This document shows positions 15,360 through 50,706 of a stretch of DNA of 58,269 nt, piece after piece. Origin of the DNA: a virus (lineage: Duplodnaviria > Caudoviricetes); the IMG/VR virus record IMGVR_UViG_3300027782_000098, positions 1 through 58,269 of that record. The stretch is one strand, 5' to 3'. Numbering within the stretch: position 1 is the first letter of the stretch; the number at the start of each line of letters is the position of its first letter. The notes below the pieces were generated by a model. The model was not told the origin of the DNA. It worked only from the letters and a program-made list of their open reading frames with translations, and did not search any database. Made by a program: the position numbers and the translations under genes.

Positions 15360-17375
15360 ATGAACGACTTAATGGACGATGACGACAAAATGATGAGTAA
15401 GAAACAAAAATCATCAACAGATTCAAACACACCTGTGTTAGACAATTTCAGTAGAGACTTAAACAGACTTGCTGAAGAAGGTAAACTTGACCCTGTTATT
15501 GGTCGTGACCGAGAAATCTTAAGGATTGCACAAATCCTTTCTCGTAGAAAGAAAAATAATCCAATTATTATTGGTGAACCTGGTTGTGGTAAAACGGCAC
15601 TTGTTGAAGGTTTAGCAATTAAAATTGTAAATGGGGAATGTCCTCGTAATTTGGTTGATAAACGTATTGTTAATCTTGATTTAACTTCAGTTGTTGCAGG
15701 TACCAAATACCGTGGACAATTTGAGGAAAGAATGAAAGTGATTATTGAAGAACTTCATGCTAACCCAAATATTATCGTATTCATTGATGAAATTCATACT
15801 TTGGTTGGGTCAGGTAATTCTTCAGGTTCTATGGATGGTTCAAACATCTTCAAACCAGCGCTTTCTCGTGGTGAATTACAATGTATTGGAGCTACTACAT
15901 TAGATGAGTTCCGTAAGAATATTGAAAAAGACGGGGCATTGGAACGTAGATTCCAAAAAGTAATTGTTGAACCTTCATCAGTTGAAGAAACAATTCAAAT
16001 CCTTAAGAATGTTCGTGACAAATACGAATCATTCCATAATGTAAACTATAGTGATGAAATAATTGAGACTTGTGTTAAACTTGCAGACCGTTATATCACA
16101 GACCGTGAGTTCCCTGACAAAGCCTTTGATATCTTGGACGAGGTTGGAGCGAGAATGCAAACTGACTTAAAAGTTCCTGAAGTTATTGAAGACCTTAAAA
16201 AGAAGGCTGCAGAAATCAAACAACAAAAGATTGATGTTGTTAAAAAACAAAATTACGAGCAAGCGGCAGAACTTCGTGATAAGGAAAAGAAAATTCTAAC
16301 CAAACTTGACCAAGAGAAACAAAAGTTTGAAGACCAATTATCAAAAGAAAAACAAACTATCTTATTAGAGAATGTTTATGATGTTGTTTCAAACATGACT
16401 AAGATTCCTGTAAGTAAAATGAGTGTTGATGATTCTAAAGCATTGTTAGATTTAGACAAAACTTTGATTGACAAAGTTATTGGTCAAAACGATGCGGTTG
16501 TTAAGATTGCAAAATCAATCAAAAGAAACCGTTTAGGTATTAAAGACCCTAACCGTCCAATTGGTTCATTTGTATTCTTAGGGTCAACTGGTGTTGGTAA
16601 AACATATTTAGCAAAACAATTGGCTAAAGAAATGTTTGGTTCAGAGGATTCACTTATTCGTGTGGATATGTCTGAATACCAAGAAAAACACACTGTATCT
16701 AAATTGGTAGGAGCTCCTCCAGGATATGTAGGTTATGAAGAAGGTGGATTATTGACTGAAAAAGTTAAAAACAAACCATATTCAGTTATTTTATTTGATG
16801 AAGTTGAGAAAGCCCACAAAGATGTTTTCACAATCTTACTTCAAATCTTAGATGATGGACATGTTACTGATAGTTTAGGTCGTAAGATTAACTTCAAGAA
16901 TACCTTGATTATCTTGACATCAAACTTAGGAGTTAAAAAATTACAAGACTTTGGTACAGGTATTGGATTTTCTTCTAACACTTACAGTAATGAAGAGGCT
17001 AAGAAACAAATCTTAATGAAAGAGATGAAAAATTTCTTTTCTCCTGAATTCATTAACCGTATTGATGATACAATTGTATTTAACTCTTTAAGTCCTGAAG
17101 ACATCAAGAAAATTACTGACATTGAGTTGAAAAAGTTGATGTCTCGTCTTTCAGATATGAAATACAAAATTAGTTATGATGAAACATTGGTTGAATACTT
17201 AGCTAAGATTGGATTTGACGAATTGTTTGGAGCTCGTCCATTGAAAAGAGCTATTCAAGATAAGGTTGAGGATTTATTATCTGAAGAAGTTCTAACAGGT
17301 AAGATGATTGAGGGTAAAACCTACCTCATTAAAGTTGTAGATGAGAATGTAGTTGTTCAAAAGAAAGGGCGATAA
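15360..17375 (+). CDS. clpC: ClpC-family AAA+ unfoldase lacking the N-terminal Clp-repeat domain
   Basis: Two NBDs (GEPGCGKT, GSTGVGKT), GTKYRG and GYVG pore loops, UVR middle domain (QNYEQAAELRD), ClpP-docking IGF loop. Confidence 0.93.
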   Translation: MNDLMDDDDKMMSKKQKSSTDSNTPVLDNFSRDLNRLAEEGKLDPVIGRDREILRIAQILSRRKKNNPIIIGEPGCGKTALVEGLAIKIVNGECPRNLVDKRIVNLDLTSVVAGTKYRGQFEERMKVIIEELHANPNIIVFIDEIHTLVGSGNSSGSMDGSNIFKPALSRGELQCIGATTLDEFRKNIEKDGALERRFQKVIVEPSSVEETIQILKNVRDKYESFHNVNYSDEIIETCVKLADRYITDREFPDKAFDILDEVGARMQTDLKVPEVIEDLKKKAAEIKQQKIDVVKKQNYEQAAELRDKEKKILTKLDQEKQKFEDQLSKEKQTILLENVYDVVSNMTKIPVSKMSVDDSKALLDLDKTLIDKVIGQNDAVVKIAKSIKRNRLGIKDPNRPIGSFVFLGSTGVGKTYLAKQLAKEMFGSEDSLIRVDMSEYQEKHTVSKLVGAPPGYVGYEEGGLLTEKVKNKPYSVILFDEVEKAHKDVFTILLQILDDGHVTDSLGRKINFKNTLIILTSNLGVKKLQDFGTGIGFSSNTYSNEEAKKQILMKEMKNFFSPEFINRIDDTIVFNSLSPEDIKKITDIELKKLMSRLSDMKYKISYDETLVEYLAKIGFDELFGARPLKRAIQDKVEDLLSEEVLTGKMIEGKTYLIKVVDENVVVQKKGR

Positions 17376-29978: not shown

Positions 29979-30109
29979 AAATAAGGAAAAGAGAAGATGG
30001 TTCAGTGGACATCTCTTTTTACAATTAGCGTTACTCTGACAGTTAAAACTCCCCCATAACTACGAACTACTGACACGTTAACGTTACGGACTTCCCTAAT
30101 CAACCTTAG

Positions 30110-30586: not shown

Positions 30587-30720
30587 ATAATATAGTGTTT
30601 TGGTCAACCACTCGCATCCCACCAATTTATTGTATCAAACTTTCTGTAGTGCAAACGATTAACTCTCCTACTACTCATTTTCAACTCACTTGCCTAAGCC
30701 TTGTCCGTTGTAAACACTTT

Positions 30721-30796
30721 TGGGTAACTAACGGGAATCGAACCCGTGACACCTTGAACCACAATCAAGTGCTCTGCCAACTGAGCTATAGCTACC
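30721..30796 (-). tRNA. tRNA-His(GUG)
   Basis: Anticodon arm CTTGA-TTGTGGT-TCAAG; G-1:C73; encoded CCA. Confidence 0.92.
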
Positions 30797-31849: not shown

Positions 31850-31852
31850 AAA

Positions 31853-31962
31853 TTTGAGATTGAGAACCTCTGTGTTGTTAGGTAAGACCCAATTAGTCAT
31901 CATTTCTGATGGGTTATCAATTATCCTACTTATGGTTAATTCCTTTCTCACAGGAACAACAC
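31853..31962 (-). ncRNA. Structured RNA, tandem copy B (conserved scaffold, variable insert)
   Basis: GTGTTGTTCCTGTGAGAAAGGAAT-[60 nt]-ACAACACAGAGGTTCTCAATCTCAAA. Confidence 0.65.
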
Positions 31963-31965
31963 GGC

Positions 31966-32067
31966 TTTGAGGTTGAGAACCTCTGTGTTGTGCAAATGTG
32001 AATATACCCCATTATAAAGTTTATATTCACATCTGACTATTTCATTCCTTTCTCACGGGAACAACAC
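31966..32067 (-). ncRNA. Structured RNA, tandem copy A (conserved scaffold, variable insert)
   Basis: GTGTTGTTCCCGTGAGAAAGGAAT-[52 nt]-ACAACACAGAGGTTCTCAACCTCAAA. Confidence 0.65.
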
Positions 32068-32074
32068 AATATTG

Positions 32075-32212
32075 TTGATAATGATGGAGTACCCGTCTCG
32101 CTCCAATCTTAACAGCTTTCCTGAGTTTTATGAGGCCTCGGCTGAAAGGGTGATGAATTCCGATTCCATTCTGGATTGTCGACATCCGTTGAGTGGGGAA
32201 AACCATTATCAA
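32075..32212 (-). ncRNA. Candidate structured RNA
   Basis: GC-rich spacer closed by a 9-bp stem ttgataatg/cattatcaa. Confidence 0.5.
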
Positions 32213-32269
32213 TTTCTTTATTGACGGGGAGTAAGTCACCAACCACTAATACTTACTCCCCACCTTCTG

Positions 32270-32478: not shown

Positions 32479-32529
32479 GTATTTTTTTACCAACATGTCA
32501 AAGACCTCTTTTTGTTTCTTTCAACAGTA

Positions 32530-32560
32530 CAAAGATACTACTTTTTTTTGAACCGCCAAA
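32530..32560 (-). promoter_or_regulatory. Bacteroidota sigma-A type promoter for tRNA array 1
   Basis: TTTG-N19-TATCTTTG; boxA-like GGTCTTTGACA at about 32496-32506. Confidence 0.8.
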
Positions 32561-32563
32561 CCT

Positions 32564-32605
32564 AAAAACAAAAAACCCCAAACTTTTCTACAAAGTTCGG
32601 GGTTT
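32564..32605 (-). terminator. Attenuator terminator of leader 1
   Basis: AAACCCCGAACTTT-GTAGA-AAAGTTTGGGGTTT followed by TTTGTTTTT. Confidence 0.85.
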
Positions 32606-32632
32606 AAATATTCTGTTACTACTAACTTACTA

Positions 32633-32734
32633 TTAACCTAAATCTAATTCCGAACCACAATTTTGCCCATGACGATACCAGCTACAAATCTCTTGTTGCT
32701 TAAACGACGATATATGGACCATTGTTGTTCTCAT
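32633..32734 (-). CDS. Leader peptide 1 (33 aa), putative attenuator of tRNA array 1
   Basis: MRTTMVHISSFKQQEICSWYRHGQNCGSELDLG*. Codons 5-22 correspond to the tRNAs at 28046-32478. Confidence 0.85.
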   Translation of the reverse strand: MRTTMVHISSFKQQEICSWYRHGQNCGSELDLG

Positions 32735-32807
32735 TGTTTATAATTATACACAATATACTAAAAGTTTTAGTTTTGTCAAATAAATTTTTTAAAGTATTTA
32801 TAAAAAG

Positions 32808-33230
32808 ATGAAAACATTAAGACAAATTATTAAAGAAGAGTTATTAGTTGAGAAAAGAATTGCCCAAATAGGAGCTTCTTTAGAAGTTTTATTTTCATTT
32901 GATGTTAATAGAACATCTCACGCATTTGATAGAGCGGTTAGAGATGATATTATAGGTTATAATACAAGACCAATTGTAAATGCTGAAATCAAAGAGATTA
33001 TTAGTATGGCAAAAAATGAAATCGCACAAAAAATAGTTAGCCAAGAAATTAAAACAGAAGAACCATTTGTAGTTAAATCTTTAAAATGGGAATTGGCAAT
33101 GGCAATTACTCCTGTTCATATATCAGGGACTTATTGGGAATTAATTATTAAAACTGTGTTTAGAGAATCTAAATATGACCCGTTTAGAGTTGGTAAAGAC
33201 CAATTAGTTATTACTTTACAAGACGTATAA
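32808..33230 (+). CDS. Hypothetical protein
   Basis: 140 aa; TATTTATA upstream; leader MKTLRQIIKEELLVE. Confidence 0.7.
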   Translation: MKTLRQIIKEELLVEKRIAQIGASLEVLFSFDVNRTSHAFDRAVRDDIIGYNTRPIVNAEIKEIISMAKNEIAQKIVSQEIKTEEPFVVKSLKWELAMAITPVHISGTYWELIIKTVFRESKYDPFRVGKDQLVITLQDV

Positions 33231-33318
33231 AAAAAAGGGTAACACTAGTATCTGAATCGTTCCCGTGTCACCCATTTTGTAATTGAGCTTGTGTATCTAA
33301 ATCGTGCTCCTCAATCAC
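33229..33318 (-). ncRNA. Small RNA with two hairpins carrying the same loop ACGATTYAGATAC
   Basis: Own promoter TATCTTTG (33330-33323); hairpins GTGATTGAG/CTCAATTAC and GGGTGACAC/GTGTTACCC; ends in a U tract. Confidence 0.7.
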
Positions 33319-33359
33319 AGTACAAAGATAAGCAAAAATTTTAATTCACAAAATTATTT

Positions 33360-33935
33360 TTAATAATTTATTTGATGGTCCTGTTTAATAGTCATACTCT
33401 GGCCAACAATAACATTTCTTTTACCTTTTGTCACTGAGTTAACATAATGAGGATGGGTTAACCCACCTGGAAATATAACAATATCTCCTTCGTTTAGACG
33501 ATATTGTACATTTTGTCTTGGGAATACCAACTCACCACCTTCATAATCATTATCCAATCCTCCAACCATTGTTATATTACTAAAATCCCAATGAACTGAT
33601 TGTGAACCTCCCGCATATGTTTCAGGAGAATAGTATAACATATATAAATCTCTCCATATTGTTTTAACATATTCTTTTAAAGATTTGATGGTTTCATAAT
33701 TAACATTAAACCCAACATTATTTTCAACATCATAGATTTTAAAGTATTCTTCAAGATAATTGTTTTCAATTTTTAAAAACCAAAAATCATTTATTTTGTG
33801 AAATAAACTCATATCTAACTTATCAATATCAATCCTTATTTGAGTGTCATTACCTCTAAGTTTTAATAATTCAGAAATAATGTCTTTAGGTATGATTCTT
33901 TCAAAAACAAAAATATCAGTATCTATTTTAATCAT
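33360..33935 (-). CDS. 2OG-Fe(II) oxygenase
   Basis: HWD, YEGGEL.F, G..VIFP, H.V..VT.G.R. Confidence 0.85.
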   Translation of the reverse strand: MIKIDTDIFVFERIIPKDIISELLKLRGNDTQIRIDIDKLDMSLFHKINDFWFLKIENNYLEEYFKIYDVENNVGFNVNYETIKSLKEYVKTIWRDLYMLYYSPETYAGGSQSVHWDFSNITMVGGLDNDYEGGELVFPRQNVQYRLNEGDIVIFPGGLTHPHYVNSVTKGKRNVIVGQSMTIKQDHQINY

Positions 33936-34648
33936 ATACTGTCTTGAATATTAAAATTAATTACACATCTATGACTTTTACCATAAAATGGTTTAACTGA
34001 ATGTACAATATCGTATGGCCAAATAATCAACATACCTTTTTTTGGTCTAAGAAAATGTGACATACCTCTAACATGGAATGTAAATACACCACTATATGGA
34101 TGGTCAGCAATTGGTTCACCGTCAGACAAATAATATCCTCCAACAAAATTTAAAGGAGTTTCTTCGTCAGGAGACCAACGACAATGATTATGTTGATTAT
34201 GACCTCGACCTTCAGTTGGGTTATAATATTGAATCCAACTTTCTGTTATATTTGGATTATTGTTGTTTTTTAGTCCTAATGAATTAATTAACTCCAAATA
34301 ACCGTCCTCACACCTTTTCTTAATTGTTTTAACACATTGTTCATCTCTATTAAGAAAGTCGTTTGGCGGTGTCCAAAAACGACTACCAATTGGGTTATAC
34401 TCTGTAGGCTCAACCCACATGTCCCTTCTGTCGTAGTTTACAAAATAATTTGATTGTCTTTCCAAATCGTATTGCTCAGGTAATTCCTGACCCATTAATT
34501 TTTGTTGAGTACTTAAAGTATTGAATCCCAAATTAAAAACCTCATCATGTAATTCATGGTCATCAAAAATCTTCATGTATACAGGAATTGGAGCAAGGTG
34601 AAATATATTGCTCTGATTTGTTGAAACTAAAGGTGACTGTACATACAT
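33932..34648 (-). CDS. 2OG-Fe(II) oxygenase-like protein
   Basis: SW..Y, HNH, GYY, P..G.LIIWP....HSV.P......R..I.FN; start corrected to ATG 34648. Confidence 0.75.
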   Translation of the reverse strand: MYVQSPLVSTNQSNIFHLAPIPVYMKIFDDHELHDEVFNLGFNTLSTQQKLMGQELPEQYDLERQSNYFVNYDRRDMWVEPTEYNPIGSRFWTPPNDFLNRDEQCVKTIKKRCEDGYLELINSLGLKNNNNPNITESWIQYYNPTEGRGHNQHNHCRWSPDEETPLNFVGGYYLSDGEPIADHPYSGVFTFHVRGMSHFLRPKKGMLIIWPYDIVHSVKPFYGKSHRCVINFNIQDSI

Positions 34649-34663
34649 ATTTACATTTTTTTG

Positions 34664-34744
34664 TACCCCAAGTCGGACTCGAACCGACACGTCATAAGAC
34701 AAATGCTCCTAAGGCATTCGCGGCTACCATTACGCCATCGGGGT
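34664..34744 (-). tRNA. tRNA-Leu(UAG)
   Basis: Anticodon arm AATGC-CTTAGGA-GCATT; variable arm. Confidence 0.9.
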
Positions 34745-34746
34745 AT

Positions 34747-34844
34747 ATATCATTATCGCTTCAGCCACATCGAGGAACACGCCTCCCCCGCGTTGTTTAA
34801 GTGTATAACTTGCGCCGTATCTCACTGAGGTACGATAATGATAT
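34747..34844 (-). ncRNA. Candidate structured RNA between tRNA-Arg and tRNA-Leu
   Basis: Perfect 12-bp closing stem atatcattatcg/cgataatgatat around a GC-rich core. Confidence 0.55.
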
Positions 34845-34846
34845 TG

Positions 34847-34920
34847 TATCCCCGACAGGATTCGAACCTGTGACCTACTGCTTAGAAGGCAGTTGCTCTA
34901 TCCAGCTGAGCTACGGAGAC
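34847..34920 (-). tRNA. tRNA-Arg(UCU)
   Basis: Anticodon arm ACTGC-CTTCTAA-GCAGT. Confidence 0.92.
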
Positions 34921-34931
34921 ATTTTATTTTG

Positions 34932-35017
34932 TACCTGGGGCGGGAATCGAACCCGCACGGACATTACTGTCCACAAGATTTTAAGTCTTGCGTGGCTACC
35001 GATTACACCACCCAGGC
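34932..35017 (-). tRNA. tRNA-Leu(UAA)
   Basis: Anticodon arm CAAGA-CTTAAAA-TCTTG; variable arm. Confidence 0.92.
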
Positions 35018-35072
35018 GAATACATTTAAGAACTATGGTACAAATATAATAGATAAAATTGATTGCTACAAG

Positions 35073-35795
35073 CTATAGTGCAAAACTTTCTTCATATAAT
35101 GTATCCATCGCATCTTCTTCAACATTTATTGTGTGGTATAATGTGACAGTTCCATCATTGAAATTAAAAATGAATTTACCGTCAGAGCCCTCATTGATTT
35201 CCCATCCGCCAAAATTACTTTCAAGTACTCTATAACACCAATCCTCAATATGAGCAGGTACTGCGTCTCCTGTTGGTTCAAAAGAACTTTCAATATAACC
35301 TGAGTCACCACCACCATTATATGGTAATTCTAAAATACCGTCGTTTGGTACCTCAACATCAGAAAATAACCCCTCATCATCCCATTCTTTAAATCTTTCT
35401 TTATCATCTGTAGAGTCAAATTCAATTACGTTTTCACCTCCTCTATCATAATAACCCCAATAATGTGAAATTGAAATTTCTTTATCGTCAACATCAATAT
35501 TGATTTCAAGTTTTTGATAATTCATCATATCAATATCAGGGACAGTAAAAAGATTATCCTCATCAACGTGATTGATTAATTTTTTCAAAATAGGTATTAA
35601 TCCGTCAGGGATGTCTGCAGAATAATTGTTCGCAAAATGTGTGATGTATTTCCATTGAACCTCCTGAGCACTAAAATCATATGCTTCACTCTCAAGTTCA
35701 AATTCAATTAAACCATCTTTCATACCCAAAGAACCCAAGTAATTACAAACTCGGTTTAAGTATTTTTTTTCGTCTGTTGTTAAAATATTTTTCAT
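35073..35795 (-). CDS. DUF6878-like acidic protein
   Basis: YNGGGDSGYIE and GGWEINEGSDG motifs (family recalled from memory). Confidence 0.6.
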   Translation of the reverse strand: MKNILTTDEKKYLNRVCNYLGSLGMKDGLIEFELESEAYDFSAQEVQWKYITHFANNYSADIPDGLIPILKKLINHVDEDNLFTVPDIDMMNYQKLEINIDVDDKEISISHYWGYYDRGGENVIEFDSTDDKERFKEWDDEGLFSDVEVPNDGILELPYNGGGDSGYIESSFEPTGDAVPAHIEDWCYRVLESNFGGWEINEGSDGKFIFNFNDGTVTLYHTINVEEDAMDTLYEESFAL

Positions 35796-35806
35796 ATCAA
35801 TAAATA

Positions 35807-36154
35807 TCAATCTTCAATTTTAAGGGTCCTCAACATCCATTGAGGTCGTTTATTTTCTGAAATATTAGTCACCCATTCTTTTGCAGATGGGATATAATTA
35901 TTACAATCTTCTTTAACATGTTGTTCTCCAACATATCTTGTGTATACTATCTTACCATCACTATTTAAAAATTCAGGACCAAACCTTTTTTCCATTTCAA
36001 AAATACCTTCACTATGATGTCTAAACATTCTATGTAAAGAATCTCCAAACCATCCTTTAGTTTCATCCATCCATTCGTGTAAATGAATATAATCTTCTGG
36101 TTTTCCACCAAACTTTTTGGCGGATGATTTTGCGTGTAAATTAGGGTGTGCCAT
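35807..36154 (-). CDS. DUF6915-like His-rich protein
   Basis: MAHP..HA.SSAKKFGGKPEDY..LH.W.D, HR..RHHSEGIF, GEQHV.ED. Confidence 0.7.
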   Translation of the reverse strand: MAHPNLHAKSSAKKFGGKPEDYIHLHEWMDETKGWFGDSLHRMFRHHSEGIFEMEKRFGPEFLNSDGKIVYTRYVGEQHVKEDCNNYIPSAKEWVTNISENKRPQWMLRTLKIED

Positions 36155-36740
36155 CTTTCCAATAATCTTTATTATAATTATATTTTTTAAATTGACTTTC
36201 AGTCCTTGAATAAACAAAATCAGCTAACTCTTGACTGTAAAATGATTGCCAAGGAATTTCAATACCATGTTCAAATTTAAATGAATTTTTTCTTATTTTG
36301 TTTTCAAAACAATCTTCAAGTAATTCCATATTATTTTTAATGAACCACATATTTTTTAAATCTGATTCTAAAAATTCTGTCCTAAGATAAGCGTCAGGTT
36401 CTTTTGGTATTTCACTTAACGAATGGTCTAAATAAACTGTATAGTAATTTAAATGTTCATTTTGTTTATCTAACGCGCTTTTAATCCATGATGGAAAAAC
36501 TTCAATATCAAAACTGATTTGTTTATGAATACAAAATAATTTAAATAAAGAAACTAATCTAGGATATGGGTGTCTAATATTTACCACTAAAAAGTAATTC
36601 TCTTTATCCTTTCTAACAATTAACCCATGGTTATCATTTAAATTTGAAAATTTTAATAATTTTTGGATTTCACCACATGACCTAGATGCAGTTCTCATTG
36701 GATTTAACCAAACAACTTTTAATTCGTCATTATATCTCAT
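36141..36740 (-). CDS. Sulfotransferase-family protein
   Basis: 5'-PSB-like PMRTASRS and 3'-PB-like IRHPYPRLVS; start corrected to ATG 36740. Confidence 0.65.
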   Translation of the reverse strand: MRYNDELKVVWLNPMRTASRSCGEIQKLLKFSNLNDNHGLIVRKDKENYFLVVNIRHPYPRLVSLFKLFCIHKQISFDIEVFPSWIKSALDKQNEHLNYYTVYLDHSLSEIPKEPDAYLRTEFLESDLKNMWFIKNNMELLEDCFENKIRKNSFKFEHGIEIPWQSFYSQELADFVYSRTESQFKKYNYNKDYWKDGTP

Positions 36741-36742
36741 AG

Positions 36743-36817
36743 TGGAGCTAGTGAGAATCGAACTCACCTCAGAAACATTGCAAGTGTTTCTCGCCAAGCC
36801 TTGGTACATGTAACCCC
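36743..36817 (-). tRNA. tRNA-Ala(UGC), atypical D arm
   Basis: G3-U70 acceptor; anticodon arm AAACA-CTTGCAA-TGTTT. Confidence 0.8.
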
Positions 36818-36823
36818 TTGTTG

Positions 36824-36896
36824 AGCCTCCTGTCGGAATCGAACCAACGACCTACTGATTACAAATCAGTTGCTCTACCAGCTGAGCTAAGGAGGC
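36824..36896 (-). tRNA. tRNA-Thr(UGU)
   Basis: Anticodon arm ACTGA-TTTGTAA-TCAGT. Confidence 0.92.
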
Positions 36897-36952
36897 ATTG
36901 TAGTGGACGCAAGCTCATCACTTGCTCATGGGCTTCCACCGAGCCCCTTTTG

Positions 36953-37024
36953 CGGTCCCACGGAGAATCGAACTCCGAACTCAGCCGTGACAGGGCTGCA
37001 TTATAGCCGTTTAACTATGAGACC
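36953..37024 (-). tRNA. tRNA-Asp(GUC)
   Basis: Anticodon arm CAGCC-CTGTCAC-GGCTG. Confidence 0.9.
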
Positions 37025-37295
37025 AATTGTCCCCACCTGAGATTATAGTGAGTAGATTTTAACGGTTTTTTCGTCTTGAAAAAACATATCCCCTATTATC
37101 GTGTACAACCCCAAATAGGTTAACCGTAAGATAGGTCTTTTTCATTAGTGTCTTACCACATAAAAAAAGTCAAACATACTCGGTGGGTTTGTTAAGTCCA
37201 TTCTCCGAGAACCCCCTCTATAAAGTCGTGGAAGGCTACAACTATACCATTCTTAAGTAACGGTACCAAAACTATTGGGTATCTCTTACCCTTTG

Positions 37296-37367
37296 AGCGA
37301 ATGAGAGGAATCGAACCTCCGTCTCCTACTTGGAAGGAAGGAGTAATGACCATTATACGACATTCGC
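37296..37367 (-). tRNA. tRNA-Gly(UCC)
   Basis: Anticodon loop CTTCCAA; G1-C72, C2-G71, U73. Confidence 0.9.
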
Positions 37368-37372
37368 AATTG

Positions 37373-37444
37373 CGTCCCCTCAAGGATTCGAACCTTGGAC
37401 CTATTCGTTAACAGCGAATTGCTCTACCGCTGAGCTAAAAAGAC
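37373..37444 (-). tRNA. tRNA-Asn(GUU)
   Basis: Anticodon arm ATTCG-CTGTTAA-CGAAT; G73. Confidence 0.88.
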
Positions 37445-37449
37445 GATTG

Positions 37450-37523
37450 TCGGGGTGGCAGGATTTGAACCTACGACCTCTTGGTCCCAAACCAAGCGCG
37501 ATACCGAGCTACGCTACACCCCG
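37450..37523 (-). tRNA. tRNA-Pro(UGG)
   Basis: Anticodon arm CTTGG-TTTGGGA-CCAAG; C1-G72. Confidence 0.92.
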
Positions 37524-37558
37524 TCTATTTTTATTTTCCCATAAACCAAAGAACACTA

Positions 37559-37589
37559 CAAAGGTAATCAAAAAACCTTATAAAACAAA
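37559..37589 (-). promoter_or_regulatory. Bacteroidota sigma-A type promoter for tRNA array 2
   Basis: TTTG-N19-TACCTTTG, followed by boxA-like GTTCTTTG. Confidence 0.8.
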
Positions 37590-37620
37590 AAACCCTGAAC
37601 TTTATGTGTTCAGGGTTTTT
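37582..37620 (-). terminator. Attenuator terminator of leader 2
   Basis: AAAAACCCTGAAC-ACATAAA-GTTCAGGGTTTTT followed by TGTTTT. Confidence 0.85.
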
Positions 37621-37642
37621 AAATTTGGCTTCATTACTACCA

Positions 37643-37732
37643 TTATTTAACATCTGAACACGAGCATAGATTCCCTGTACCGTCGTTTGTCGGTGCTAAA
37701 GCTAATCTATTAAGCGTGTTTAATGTTGTCAT
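37643..37732 (-). CDS. Leader peptide 2 (29 aa), putative attenuator of tRNA array 2
   Basis: MTTLNTLNRLALAPTNDGTGNLCSCSDVK*. Codons 2-22 use only amino acids of the tRNAs at 34664-37523. Confidence 0.85.
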   Translation of the reverse strand: MTTLNTLNRLALAPTNDGTGNLCSCSDVK

Positions 37733-37737
37733 AATGT

Positions 37738-37745
37738 TATAAATA
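37738..37745 (-). promoter_or_regulatory. Putative phage late promoter TATTTATA upstream of leader 2
   Basis: Same motif precedes most structural genes in the window. Confidence 0.65.
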
Positions 37746-37770
37746 GTAATAAAAATTAAAAAATCAAACC

Positions 37771-40280: not shown

Positions 40281-41948
40281 ATGAGGACATTAGGATTTTC
40301 TGTTGGACACGATAAAGGTGCCGTTATTATTGAAAACGGTAAAGTCGTTGTTGGTATAACACAAGAACGATTATCAAGGATAAAACATGACGGTGCATAT
40401 CAAGGAGGAAAACTTCCTTATGAATCAATCATTTATTGTTTAAATTATTTGGGTATTACTATAAAAGATATTGATTCTTTTGTTTATAGTACTACAGAGC
40501 TTAAAGATGATGTTGAGGAACAGTTTAAAATTTATTTTGGTGATAGACCTTTTAATCTTAAATTTATTCCTCACCATTTAGCTCACGCCTATTCAAGCTT
40601 TTTTAGTTCAGGATTTGAAGATGCTGCGGTTATAGTTGCAGACGCATCAGGTAGTATTTTAAATCATTTAAATAAATTACCTAATTGGTATCCTGATTTT
40701 GAGACTAAAAATTTGGACCTAAATGAAGATTGGACAGAGGGGATATCAATTTATCATCTAACCAAAAAAACATTTAAAGAAGTTTATAAAAAATGGATAA
40801 AATATCCAGTTCCATTAGAAACTGATGATGATGTTTCTGTCGGTACATTATATTCCGAAGGTTCATTACAATTAATATACGAACCAAATGAACATACTTG
40901 GCCTGCAGGTAAACTAATGGGATTAGCGTCTTACGCTAATCAAGATATTGTAAATGAGGCACCTCACTATATTGTTGAAAAAGATGGTGATATTTTTATT
41001 CCAAATAGAAGAATTTACCCTAAAGTAACATATAATTCCGATTTTTATTCAAAAGCTTGTGTTGCTGGGATTTACCAACGAGAACAAGAAAGAGTTTCTT
41101 TAATGTTAGGAAAAAAAGCGAAAGAGTTGACTAAATCAAAAAATGTTTGTGTTGCTGGAGGTTCATTTTTAAATTGTAATTCAAATGAACAAATATTAAA
41201 TTCAGGTCTTTTTGATAATTCATATTTTGTACCTCCTGCCGATGATAGTGGAATTCCTTTAGGGTGTGCTTGGTTTGCATACCAAGAATTAATGGATATC
41301 AAAGAAACTGAAATGTTTAGTCCGTATATCGGTAAACCATATTCAAGAATTGAAGTTATTGAAGCCCTAAACAAACACAATATTTTAAACTATAAAGAAT
41401 ATAATGACATACATGAATTAATTGATGGTATTACTGATGAATTATCTCAAAATAGAGTTATTGGGTGGTTTCAAGGAGGTTCAGAAATAGGTCCAAGAGC
41501 GTTAGGTAATCGTTCAATATTAGCATCACCAATCAATTCTTGGATGACAGGACATATAAATGCTGATATTAAGAAAAGAGAGTGGTATAGACCATTCGCG
41601 CCTGCAGTGTTATTTGACCATCAAAAAGATATTTTTGTATCGGATGTATATTCACCTTATATGATGGTAACAACAACTGTAAAGGAAGATTGGAGAACTA
41701 AAATACCAGCGGTAACTCACATTGATTATTCTGCAAGACATCAATCTGTAACTGAAGCAAGTAATTATAATTTCTATAAATTAATTGAAAGTTTTTATAT
41801 TAAAACTGGTGTTCCTGTTTTACTTAACACAAGTTTTAACGGTCCAAAAGAACCTATTGTTGAAAGTCCTTATGATGCAATAAACACATTTCTAAATTGC
41901 GGTTTAGATTTTTTAGTAATAAATAATTTTGTAATAAGTAAAAATTAA
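40281..41948 (+). CDS. Carbamoyltransferase (NodU/CmcH/TobZ family) 1
   Basis: GHD, ERLSRIKH, HHLAHA, GKLMGLA, GPRALGNRSIL, RPFAP, LLNTSFN. Confidence 0.92.
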   Translation: MRTLGFSVGHDKGAVIIENGKVVVGITQERLSRIKHDGAYQGGKLPYESIIYCLNYLGITIKDIDSFVYSTTELKDDVEEQFKIYFGDRPFNLKFIPHHLAHAYSSFFSSGFEDAAVIVADASGSILNHLNKLPNWYPDFETKNLDLNEDWTEGISIYHLTKKTFKEVYKKWIKYPVPLETDDDVSVGTLYSEGSLQLIYEPNEHTWPAGKLMGLASYANQDIVNEAPHYIVEKDGDIFIPNRRIYPKVTYNSDFYSKACVAGIYQREQERVSLMLGKKAKELTKSKNVCVAGGSFLNCNSNEQILNSGLFDNSYFVPPADDSGIPLGCAWFAYQELMDIKETEMFSPYIGKPYSRIEVIEALNKHNILNYKEYNDIHELIDGITDELSQNRVIGWFQGGSEIGPRALGNRSILASPINSWMTGHINADIKKREWYRPFAPAVLFDHQKDIFVSDVYSPYMMVTTTVKEDWRTKIPAVTHIDYSARHQSVTEASNYNFYKLIESFYIKTGVPVLLNTSFNGPKEPIVESPYDAINTFLNCGLDFLVINNFVISKN

Positions 41949-41950
41949 CT

Positions 41951-43540
41951 ATGAGTTCCATTTATGGTTTTTTTGCAGGCTCACATAGTCCAGTTGTCTC
42001 ATTAGTAAAAGACGGGGAAATAGTGTCTTGTATAGAAGAAGAAAGAATGACACGAATAAAGTCAGGAGATAATTATGACGCTTACCCCGAATTATCCTCA
42101 GATATAATCCAAAAATTTACGAAATTAAATATTGAAGATTCTGACTTTAAAGTTTTTGCCCAACCGACACCAGATAAATTTGCAAGTAGAATAACAGGTG
42201 GTGATTATGAAAAAGTAAGTCACCATGATTCTCATTGTTACGGAGTTTATTACACAAGTGGTATGGAAGGAAAAGTTATGACCATATCATATGATGGTGG
42301 TGGTGACTTTTCTGTTATGAAAATTTATTTGTGTGAGGACGGTAAAATGACTTTATTAAAGGATGATAGAATATCGGAATTTGGTAGTCTATCTCATTTA
42401 TGGGGATTTAGTACTTCAGGTATTATGGGTTATGACAAATACGATGAAGGTGTTTGGAAAATGTGTAAGGACGAAGGTAAACTAATGGGTATGGCTCCAA
42501 ATGGTCGTTTTGACAAAGACATTTATAATATGTTAAATTCTTGTATTGATTATGAAAATTTAAGATTTTTTCCATCTGGTACCGCAACAAAAACTAAATT
42601 TTTAATTGATTCAATGTACCGAAAAGGGTACTTCAACACTCAAGAAAAAAGAGAGATTTTTTCATATAACTTACAAAAGTTAACTGAGGATTTATTTTTA
42701 AAATTCTTAAATGATTTACACCAAATCTACCCTGACTATAAACAATTATGTTTTGCAGGGGGATTATTTGCAAATGTTAAATTAAACCAAAAAATAAACG
42801 AACTTGATTGGGTAGATGAAATGTTTGTATTTCCTGCAATGGGAGATGAAGGATTATCATTAGGTGCATGTATCTATAAATCAGTACAGTTAGGTGAATG
42901 GACAAAACCTAAACGACTTGAAAACTCTTATTTAGGGTTAAAATATACTAACTTGGATGTTGAGAGGGTTTCTGAACATTATTCATTTAATAAAAAACTT
43001 TACGTACCAAGTGAAATTGCTCACGATTTGAATGATGGTAAAATAATTGGATGGTTTAAAGATGGTTTTGAATATGGTCCTAGAGCTTTAGGAGCTAGAA
43101 GTATATTAGTAAGACCAACTGATGTTGGAGCTCATTCGGTTTTAAATAAAAGATTAAAACGAAACGATGTGATGCCATTTGCACCTATTATAATGGATGA
43201 ACATTTTGAAAATGTTTTTGAATATTCTAAATCAAAATATTCTGCAGAATTTATGACAATTTGTTACCCAACTAAAGAATCTTGGATTAATAAAATACCT
43301 GCTGTAATTCAAAAATCAGATAAAACCGCAAGACCTCAAGTTGTTAGAAAAGATAAATTACCTAAGTTTTGGGAAATACTTAATGAGTATTATAAAATAT
43401 CAGGAATTCCTTTGTTATTAAACACATCGTTTAATTCTCACAATGAACCGATTATTGATAACCCAATTCATGCGTTTGAAAAATTAAAAGAAGGTATAAT
43501 TGATAAATTAGTAATTGAAGATTATGTATATTACAATTAA
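41951..43540 (+). CDS. Carbamoyltransferase (NodU/CmcH/TobZ family) 2
   Basis: EEERMTRIK, HHDSH, EGKLMGMA, GPRALGARSIL, LLNTSFN. Confidence 0.92.
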   Translation: MSSIYGFFAGSHSPVVSLVKDGEIVSCIEEERMTRIKSGDNYDAYPELSSDIIQKFTKLNIEDSDFKVFAQPTPDKFASRITGGDYEKVSHHDSHCYGVYYTSGMEGKVMTISYDGGGDFSVMKIYLCEDGKMTLLKDDRISEFGSLSHLWGFSTSGIMGYDKYDEGVWKMCKDEGKLMGMAPNGRFDKDIYNMLNSCIDYENLRFFPSGTATKTKFLIDSMYRKGYFNTQEKREIFSYNLQKLTEDLFLKFLNDLHQIYPDYKQLCFAGGLFANVKLNQKINELDWVDEMFVFPAMGDEGLSLGACIYKSVQLGEWTKPKRLENSYLGLKYTNLDVERVSEHYSFNKKLYVPSEIAHDLNDGKIIGWFKDGFEYGPRALGARSILVRPTDVGAHSVLNKRLKRNDVMPFAPIIMDEHFENVFEYSKSKYSAEFMTICYPTKESWINKIPAVIQKSDKTARPQVVRKDKLPKFWEILNEYYKISGIPLLLNTSFNSHNEPIIDNPIHAFEKLKEGIIDKLVIEDYVYYN

Positions 43541-50112: not shown

Positions 50113-50706
50113 TTACCTTAAATTTGCCCCGCAAAGCCAAGTAACTAAAGATGTTCTAACACCTGAAGTTAATGGTGTTACTCTATGTAATAAAAATGAT
50201 GGGAAAAAACAAACTAACCCAAGTTGTTTGGGTACACTAACAATGTTAGACCCAAGGTTCATTTGTAATTCTCCTCCTTCATATTCTTCAGGGTCAGAAA
50301 GTTGTAGAACAACTGATAATTTTCTATTTGAAAGTCCTGGTCCTAAATCAGCATGCCAATCATAGTGACCACCATCTCCATAATAAGTGGTATATTGTAG
50401 TAAATCTTGATACCCCCAGATATCAAAGCCCCACATTTCTTTATTTGCGATTCTTGCGTAATTTGAAAGTTTTTCATATATCCATGAGGTTTCTTCATTT
50501 TCTTCAAGCCAAGCAATATCACTAATTCTATATTCACTGACAGTACTGTCGTCATCCGAACCTGTTGCGGCAGCTTGTTTTGGGTATTTATCCCCAATTT
50601 CTCTAATTTTTATAATTTCACTTGGAGTGAATGCTGATGCGAAATAATAGTAATTAAAATGATTTACATTATTTCTTTGTTCTGAGATGAAATGATTTGA
50701 TGACAT
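50113..50706 (-). CDS. 2OG-Fe(II) oxygenase (prolyl-hydroxylase-like)
   Basis: YDWHAD, RKLS..LQLS.P..YEGGEL, FPSF..HRVTP.T.G.R.SLV.W. Confidence 0.9.
   Translation of the reverse strand: MSSNHFISEQRNNVNHFNYYYFASAFTPSEIIKIREIGDKYPKQAAATGSDDDSTVSEYRISDIAWLEENEETSWIYEKLSNYARIANKEMWGFDIWGYQDLLQYTTYYGDGGHYDWHADLGPGLSNRKLSVVLQLSDPEEYEGGELQMNLGSNIVSVPKQLGLVCFFPSFLLHRVTPLTSGVRTSLVTWLCGANLR

Follow-up and report, generated by a model that had tools for sequence, protein, structure and literature searches.

Why phages carry tRNA genes, and how the expression of those genes is set, is an old open question. It takes a concrete form in IMGVR_UViG_3300027782_000098, an IMG/VR record of a Caudoviricetes contig in which two tRNA arrays are each preceded by a short leader open reading frame (ORF), an intrinsic terminator and, after that terminator, a promoter-like sequence. 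What lets transcription into these tRNA genes? The window discussed here is the whole viral-contig record (58,269 bases, G+C content of 32%, completeness estimate of 19). ARAGORN finds 25 tRNA genes in it, all on the minus strand, and Rfam finds the identical 25. The answer that we favor, at a probability of about 0.6, is that each tRNA block would receive two inputs: an unconditional host-type promoter, and an upstream input gated by an attenuator whose leader is matched in its codons to the tRNAs behind it.

A first-pass annotation had read both array heads as promoter motif, leader ORF, terminator, TTTG-N19-TAnnTTTG promoter, boxA-like word and tRNAs, and every one of these elements is indeed found where it had been placed on the minus strand. 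This architecture is real and conserved and is not due to chance, because related contigs show the parts in an identical order. The elements of array 2 and then of array 1, in the direction of transcription, are as follows.

37768-37765, minus strand: TTTG, read from the sequence 19 nucleotides upstream of TATTTATA, a possible -33 element
37745-37738, minus strand: TATTTATA, phage-type promoter-like motif, 5 nucleotides before the leader-2 ATG
37732-37643, minus strand: leader 2 ORF, 29 codons, 29 amino acids
37661-37654, minus strand: region 2 of attenuator 2, GTGTTCAG, with its complement in the terminator-2 5' arm and loop
37620-37588, minus strand: intrinsic terminator 2, 13 pairs and a T-run with a run of 6 T, -17.6 kcal/mol
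37589-37559, minus strand: predicted array-2 downstream promoter, TTTG-N19-TACCTTTG, with a -33 TTTG formed by the last bases of the terminator T-run
37554-37546, minus strand: boxA-like word GTTCTTTGG of array 2, conserved in the related locus L043
37523-36823, minus strand: proximal tRNA block of array 2, Pro, Asn, Gly, Asp and Thr, with tRNA-Pro from 37523
36817-36740, minus strand: aberrant tRNA-Ala-like gene, aligning with the tRNA-Ala of relatives
35048-35041, minus strand: predicted -7 box TATATTTG of the Leu-UAA/Arg-UCU/Leu-UAG sub-array; the site reads either TATCTTTG or TATATTTG in relatives
35017-34663, minus strand: tRNA sub-array Leu-UAA, Arg-UCU and Leu-UAG (ARAGORN)
32780-32750, minus strand: predicted leader-1 upstream promoter, TTTG-N19-TATATTGT, host-type architecture with a weak -7 box
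32746-32739, minus strand: TAATTATA, the variant motif of the first-pass annotation, 4 nucleotides before the leader-1 ATG
32734-32633, minus strand: leader 1 ORF, 33 codons, 33 amino acids
32656-32650, minus strand: region 2 of attenuator 1, GGTTCGG, able to pair with CCGAACU of the terminator 5' arm or with codons 2-5 (region 1)
32605-32573, minus strand: intrinsic terminator 1, 14 pairs and a run of 6 T, -19.4 kcal/mol
32560-32530, minus strand: predicted array-1 downstream promoter, TTTG-N19-TATCTTTG
32506-32498, minus strand: boxA-like word GGTCTTTGA of array 1
32478-29667, minus strand: array 1, Val, Glu, Phe, Phe, His, Ser-UGA, Ile-GAU, Lys, Cys, Trp, Tyr, Gln, Arg-ACG and Met, starting with tRNA-Val (from 32478) and with an HNH ORF inside

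The codon content of the leaders follows the tRNA genes behind them. Under relaxed wobble, a single U34 tRNA is allowed to read all four codons of a box. On this basis leader 1 has an unbroken run of 18 codons (5-22), all readable by array-1 tRNAs, in which each of the 15 array-1 tRNA species (15/15) has at least one codon. Leader 2 has a run of 21 (codons 2-22), made up solely of codons that its own tRNAs can read, that covers 9/9 species, namely Pro, Asn, Gly, Asp, Thr, Ala-like and the distal Leu-UAA, Arg-UCU and Leu-UAG. Run and coverage were jointly matched by 0 of 200,000 draws from phage codon usage for either leader, and no real ORF window reached both (0/12,885 for leader 1 and 0/13,093 for leader 2). 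With strict wobble, leader 1 keeps a run of 16 and a coverage of 14/15, again equaled on both criteria in 0/200,000 draws; the result is weaker for leader 2, whose run of 6 and coverage of 9/9 are reached together in 35/200,000. Own-array codons make up fractions of 0.69 (leader 1) and 0.79 (leader 2), and cross-array codons 0.31 and 0.21.

Relatives of the locus were found through the divergent 140-amino-acid ORF at 32808-33230 (plus strand), as sets of 12 loci, 27 loci and 14 metagenome loci. L042, L043 and L052 form the window-like set, L049 is a further type, and group B consists of L003, L004, L018, L006, L010, L011, L012 and copies. All close relatives (72-81% identity) retain both arrays. 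Near the distant homologues of this ORF (14 of the 27 loci, L027-L039 and L041, 44-54% identity) there were 0 tRNA genes, and relatives of the 86-amino-acid ORF upstream of leader 2 were not found in viral contigs. A megablast of the region against a phage collection returned tRNA-sized matches only, 0 of them with at least 80% coverage. Flavobacterium phage immuto, the nearest cultured relative by portal, was considered as a model for the module and set aside: its 3 tRNA genes lie behind a 54-codon ORF, and a T-run terminator was not seen there.

Comparison of the leaders, with codon counts in relatives read by eye, reveals how they vary. The leader 1 of the window and that of L004 both have 33 codons and share 13 identical positions. 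Within codons 5-24 they differ at 15 positions, and 12 of these residues reappear at other places, in permuted order. In the L004 and L018 types a third leader, MRTTLLNTLLLDRQGLLRRLMP, precedes Leu-UAA, Arg-UCU and Leu-UAG; it has 22 codons, is rich in Leu and Arg (12 of 21 codons are TTA, CTN or AGA), and carries its own GTTCAG word and terminator:

L004, 8204-8400, minus strand: third leader-terminator module
L018, 5187-5383, minus strand: third leader-terminator module

The same Leu/Arg/Leu sub-array has only a -7 box and no third leader in the window, where Leu and Arg codons are found in leader 2, so that this one leader covers what leaders 2 and 3 of L004 cover separately. Other relatives (L006, L010, L011 and L012) have a terminator and a -7 box at this place and no leader. 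Types that possess a tRNA-Ala gene (L004 and L006) have GAT GCG GGC in leader 2, and types in which that gene was not found (L010 and L012) have GAT GGG GGC, a tracking that is probably one evolutionary event. In group-B leader 2, variants comprise 6 synonymous third-position changes versus 1 non-synonymous change, and in 10 of 11 sequences the indels within the leader-1 coding part have lengths divisible by three. The permuted order, the third leader, the Ala tracking and the mostly synonymous change speak for selection on codon content and for translation of the leaders. The tRNA-Ala-like gene of the window has a UGC anticodon loop and G3:U70, together with an odd D arm and a 7-base-pair anticodon stem, and relatives have a normal tRNA-Ala at this place; it is missed by ARAGORN and by the Rfam tRNA model, its sole Rfam match being a 22.7-bit hit to the tmRNA model.

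The terminator between leader and tRNAs is conserved in all relatives, and the leaders hold a candidate partner for it. A GTTCRG word lies near the leader 3' end, either within a few codons upstream of the stop codon or immediately past it. Of 18 leader copies, 17 include this word in their best duplex with the terminator 5' arm, and it mimics the terminator 3' arm in the copies compared. For attenuator 2 the region-2 duplex amounts to -12.9 kcal/mol, with 5 of 300 shuffles equally good. In leader 1 the 7-base-pair helix between region 2 and the terminator 5' arm (the 2:3 helix) is paired in 77/77 cells across 11 sequences, and the paralogous leaders differ on both sides (GTTCGG/CCGAAC in leader 1, GTTCAG/CTGAAC in leaders 2 and 3). 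The competing 1:2 helix, formed by the GTTCRG word with codons 2-5, is 84.5% paired with 3 compensatory pairs (17/500 shuffles equal it), and leader 1 presumably begins with array-2 Thr codons because codons 2-5 are used in this way. Folds of the nascent transcript, before the terminator 3' arm exists, contain the antiterminator in the window and in most relatives. Full-length equilibrium folds retain the terminator, and therefore any switching would need to work kinetically, like that of classical attenuators.

What follows the terminator is the second part of the proposal. A passage of PMC2483708 gives the Bacteroidota sigma-A promoter consensus as -33 TTTG / -7 TAnnTTTG. The pattern TTTG-N17-21-TAnnTTTG has 18 matches in the window versus 4.42 ± 2.19 in shuffled sequence, and 0 of 100 shuffles reached 18. 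The portal protein is gp20-like, with Microcystis phage Mel-JY01 and Flavobacterium phage immuto as top cultured matches (about 38% identity each), and a terminase, a prohead protease and an RnlA-like RNA ligase are also encoded. We read the window as probably derived from a T4-like phage of a Bacteroidota host, because of this portal and the excess of the Bacteroidota promoter pattern. The downstream promoter had been called host-type, and comparison agrees with this: TA..TTTGT is the sole invariant block between the T-run and the first tRNA in 10/10 array-1 heads, one per lineage, while its free positions and flanks vary, a pattern that would be expected of a working -7 box.

Array 2 is different. 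Its downstream promoter is predicted in the window and in L043 only, and it is absent in 9/9 group-B loci. There, tRNA-Pro starts 5 nucleotides after the T-run in 8 of 9 loci, and the 42 nucleotides found at this place in L010 contain no TAnnTTTG. Read-through would thus be obligatory in group-B array 2, because no promoter lies between T-run and tRNA-Pro, and this predicted spacing is the strongest single argument for a terminator that can be passed in a regulated manner. The caveat attached to the original description, that the arrays are never fully dependent on the attenuator, fits the window, in which both arrays have a downstream promoter, and fails for group-B array 2 (0/9 loci). The bypass promoter thus appears as an optional module that is fixed in array 1 and gained or lost in array 2. 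A supposed tendency to weaker terminators where the bypass is absent was discarded: the group-B leader 2 terminator is the weakest (-12.3 kcal/mol), but that of leader 3, at -12.9 kcal/mol, is accompanied by a -7 box.

Anatomy, codon match, conservation and potential pairings were observed directly. From these we infer promoter activity and stalling-dependent read-through as follows. Input A would be the sigma-A-type promoter between terminator and first tRNA, giving an unconditional supply of tRNA. Input B would start upstream and have to pass a ribosome-mediated attenuator made of leader ORF, GTTCRG region 2, stop codon and intrinsic terminator. When all listed codons are read fast, the ribosome reaching the leader 3' end would cover region 2, the terminator would form and transcription would stop before the tRNAs. 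If any listed codon is slow, its tRNA being scarce, damaged or uncharged, the ribosome would stall upstream, region 2 would pair with the terminator 5' arm and transcription would enter the array. The promoters for input B would fall into two classes, a TATTTAT(A/T) phage motif for leaders 2 and 3, and a host-type -33/-7 pair plus a TA..TAT word for leader 1. Input A would be optional, fixed in array 1 of every lineage and present in array 2 only in the window's lineage, so that the attenuator may be the only route into group-B array 2.

Several observations weigh against this proposal. On the side of the switch, the 2:3 helix of leader 1 shows one-sided changes only and no double-sided change, and the antiterminator helices are short (6-10 base pairs, -7.9 to -15.1 kcal/mol, next to terminators of -12.3 to -20.0 kcal/mol), with 0 to 61 of 300 shuffles per sequence matching the antiterminator duplex. 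Equilibrium folds in which a 30-nucleotide mask stands for the stalled ribosome keep the terminator in most cases. On the side of the codons, L006-type leaders hold two internal Met codons with no array-1 tRNA-Met, L012-type leaders keep Lys and TCA/TCG Ser codons where tRNA-Lys and tRNA-Ser(UGA) genes were not found, and the window retains two Ala codons though its tRNA-Ala gene looks degenerate. Stalling as such cannot separate a shortage of tRNA from amino-acid starvation. As for the downstream promoter, its -33 TTTG is not conserved in L004, L018 and L042. The boxA-like pattern has 9 matches in the window versus 9.48 ± 2.87 in shuffles and is thus not enriched, and in group-B array 1 the word precedes the -7 box, falling within the downstream-promoter spacer. 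Transcripts from input A of group B would lack the word because of this position; in the window it would be transcribed from both predicted inputs, and in group B from the upstream input only. Its conservation beside the first tRNA in all lineages is the one point in its favor, and it may equally be a Nus-type site or the operator of a DNA-binding regulator.

The alternative that survives best is the one first put forward for this locus. It holds that each array is transcribed early, and without attenuation, from its downstream host-type promoter, and that a phage-type upstream promoter acts late, feeding the attenuator for an on-demand supply. Several features speak for this view. TATTTAT is the sole invariant block in the 8/8 upstream regions of leaders 2 and 3, where it lies 4 to 17 nucleotides before the start codon; a conserved -33 or -7 element is absent there, and the TTTG at 37768-37765 is not conserved upstream of leader 3. 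The leader-2 motif had been singled out as phage-type, and these data bear out a distinct class. TAWTTATA occurs in 35 copies in the window versus 20.4 ± 4.8 in shuffles (0/100 shuffles reached 35), and TATTTATA is the top oriented 8-mer before ORFs (81 starts). Eleven of its 22 copies lie at most 45 nucleotides upstream of a start, compared with 8.9% for other permutations of the same letters and 2/22 for the reverse word. It precedes the portal gene and other head-module ORFs, mostly without a -33 TTTG, a pattern that supports the phage-type label for this candidate promoter. The portal is T4-like, and T4 late promoters are single 8-base-pair AT words. TAnnTTTG promoters are predicted before the genes for RNA ligase, a DNA-binding protein and a phosphoesterase. 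An invariant TA..TAT word even stands beside the start codon of leader 1.

At leader 1, however, the early/late scheme meets a difficulty. The variant motif TAATTATA reported there is present, but the promoter at this place looks host-type: a sigma-70 scan scores 11/12 (TTGACA-N16-TATATT) at a position better placed than TAATTATA, the TTTG at -33 never varies, and 6 of 10 lineages carry a perfect TATCTTTG as the -7 box, which reads TATATTGT in the window. Array 1 would then be attenuated early too. TAATTATA lies within the TA..TAT word, which is invariant across 10 lineages and may be a second promoter or merely start-site context. In addition, transcription from a host-type promoter predicted at 38956-38927, at the head of an operon, could continue into leader 2, as no terminator is predicted on the way, and group-B array 2 has no downstream promoter at all. 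Neither a sigma-like gene nor a gp55-like gene is present in the window, which is a fragment of about 19% of the genome. We consider it unlikely that the early/late scheme holds as stated for both arrays. For a temporal split as such, the timing that we infer has odds somewhat short of even: it is plausible for arrays 2 and 3 and doubtful for array 1.

The number of entries is another point of difference. Two per array had been expected, and the window does contain two candidate entry points for each, but more than two exist, as the promoter at 38956-38927 and a further TATTTATA inside array 1 indicate. These and the remaining features around array 1 are the following.

32795-32802, plus strand: TATTTATA, 5 nucleotides before the divergent 140-amino-acid ORF (32808-33230, plus strand), invariant in 10/10 lineages
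31734-31727, minus strand: TATTTATA inside array 1, 13 nucleotides before the HNH ORF, a possible third entry
29156-29127, minus strand: terminator-like hairpin, 11 pairs and a T-run, -16.9 kcal/mol
29111-28045, minus strand: distal tRNA-Ile(UAU) and tRNA-Ser(GCU); leader 1 contains their codons, ATA and AGC

The hairpin that had been noted before the distal Ile-UAU and Ser-GCU genes is real. Its T-run ends 10 nucleotides before tRNA-Ile(UAU), with no promoter motif between, and since this gene starts so close behind a hairpin of -16.9 kcal/mol, the predicted layout implies that tRNA-Ile(UAU) must be made by read-through or processing. Hairpins with a T-run number 13 in the 12 kilobases scanned versus 6.1 ± 2.7 in shuffles. 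The hairpin at 29156-29127 also closes a Dps-like ORF. With regard to spacing, the -7 TAnnTTTG ends exactly 4 nucleotides before the ATG in at least five genes (19008, 24011, 28000, 48124 and 53871), and TATTTATA lies 3-5 nucleotides from the start in five cases; the 4-nucleotide spacing of the -7 box suggests leaderless or near-leaderless mRNAs.

A second alternative, which we regard as improbable, takes leader and terminator as an independent mini-gene or insulator, with the arrays driven by downstream promoters plus leak; the peptide would have its own function or none, and the hairpin would only end or stabilize upstream transcripts. Leader peptides are indeed conserved as ORFs, and a leaderless terminator followed by a promoter exists before the Leu sub-array (L006, L010, L011 and L012) and elsewhere in the window. 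A mini-gene would not account, however, for a codon inventory that fits the array behind each of three different leaders, for residues permuted in order and kept in composition, for an Ala codon that tracks the tRNA-Ala gene, or for a GTTCRG word that mimics the terminator 3' arm in every copy, and the group-B tRNA-Pro 5 nucleotides after the T-run leaves no place for a promoter of its own. Equally improbable is an attenuator acting alone, with the post-terminator TAnnTTTG words as relics or chance matches that do not initiate: group-B array 2 does without such a promoter, chance alone would produce about 4 of the 18 matches in the window, and the -33 TTTG comes partly from the terminator T-run and is lost in some lineages, but TA..TTTGT is invariant in 10/10 lineages amid varying free positions and flanks, and the same box follows a terminator before the Leu/Arg/Leu sub-array in leaderless relatives.

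Other features of the region deserve mention. The HNH endonuclease ORF (31713-31294) lies between two tRNA-Phe(GAA) genes (span 31849-31220, minus strand) and looks like a homing-endonuclease insertion with a duplicated target. A candidate small RNA at 33352-33229 (minus strand) would start from a promoter TTTG-N18-TATCTTTG (33352-33323), followed by about 90 nucleotides with two hairpins, the second being a terminator (33273-33237 and T-run). It has a fold z-score of -3.19 and no Rfam match, and it is 86-95% identical in 11 relatives, exceeding the conservation of the neighboring 140-amino-acid ORF. Within the arrays, conserved non-tRNA spacers were seen on the minus strand at 30587-30721, 34745-34845, 31850-32268, 37025-37294 and 29979-30108. 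Identity reaches 95% for the His-Ser spacer, 90-94% for Arg-Leu and 89% in L042 for Glu-Phe, which has internal repeats. These spacers match no Rfam family and look like structured RNAs or tRNA remnants. Auxiliary genes comprise two tandem Nol-like carbamoyltransferases, three ORFs resembling 2OG-Fe(II) oxygenases, of which two lie within the tRNA region, and a 671-amino-acid FtsH-like ATP-dependent protease; jointly they span 40281-43540 (plus), 33360-34648 (minus), 50113-50706 (minus) and 15360-17375 (plus).

Should the two-input reading be correct, codon-matched attenuators before tRNA genes would make tRNA supply a feedback loop on decoding speed. The two-entry layout would amount to a testable design rule that combines a fixed and a demand-driven supply. 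Because natural variants without the fixed input exist, as in group-B array 2, the contribution of each input could be measured by comparison. The same data point to words that may serve as early and late promoters in an uncultured phage, probably T4-like and of a Bacteroidota host. More tentatively, and with the balance of chances leaning against it, the module could be a re-writable demand sensor in which each block has a leader listing exactly its own tRNAs, in which leaders are re-spelled, split or merged along with rearranged tRNA blocks, and in which a bypass promoter added or dropped per block sets the unconditional supply. On this view, blocks lacking the bypass would stay silent until decoding falters, and would thus serve specifically to counter the cleavage or depletion of host tRNAs and to meet the late-phase peak of translation.

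A literature search for attenuation or leader-peptide control of tRNA genes found no description of it. Parts of the layout resemble known systems. T4-type late promoters are TATAAATA, a single 8-base-pair A/T word read by gp55. The candidate phage word resembles them in form, being an 8-base-pair A/T word near the start, usually without a -35/-33 element and placed before head genes. It differs in that TATTTATA is found in gene orientation, whereas TATAAATA so oriented precedes only 2 of 81 starts. T-box riboswitches bind uncharged tRNA directly, without translation. They share with the mechanism proposed here the sensing of the state of a tRNA species and the gating of a terminator before genes of the translation apparatus. 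Unlike them, the phage element contains an ORF; it lacks T-box features, and Rfam gave no T-box match.

Two sources describe rrn operons as having tandem promoters and boxA/Nus antitermination (PMC13753749; PMC5179076), and the first gives the boxA consensus as AUGAUCUUUGAAA in B. subtilis and UGCUCUUUAACA in E. coli (PMC13753749). The tRNA arrays likewise encode stable RNA, have more than one predicted promoter and carry a (G/U)NUCUUUGA-type word in the leader, the phage words being GGUUCUUUGAAA, GGUCUUUGACA and GUUCUUUGG. As a match of sequence only, the phage core UCUUUGA agrees with the B. subtilis consensus given in that source (PMC13753749). The phage word shows no enrichment in the window and is upstream of the -7 box in group B.

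A further likeness is to the multivalent leader-peptide attenuators of enterobacteria, such as those of ilvGMEDA and thr, and to those of the trp, his, leu and pheA operons. Shared features, predicted in the phage, are a short translated leader with regulatory codons, an intrinsic terminator, an exclusive antiterminator, a 1:2 helix and a stop codon near region 2. The phage element is not a member of Thr_leader (RF00506), the only leader-like Rfam match, which scores 28.4 bits at 37584-37752 versus a threshold of 55 (E 0.062). It would control tRNA genes and not enzymes, its carrier is probably a phage of Bacteroidota, and its leader names as many as 15 different tRNA species, giving each one or two codons, whereas enterobacterial leaders list one to three amino acids in tandem. 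A plain leader-peptide attenuator also lacks what the window arrays have, a predicted promoter between terminator and genes. For this there is a parallel in the internal promoter of the E. coli trp operon and in those of the his and ilv operons, which are unattenuated promoters within attenuated operons. Both designs would have two tiers, a regulated, attenuated upstream input and a low constitutive promoter downstream. The phage promoter is distinct in lying between terminator and first gene, where it partly overlaps the T-run and would serve the whole array and not only the distal genes, and in having been gained or lost between close lineages.

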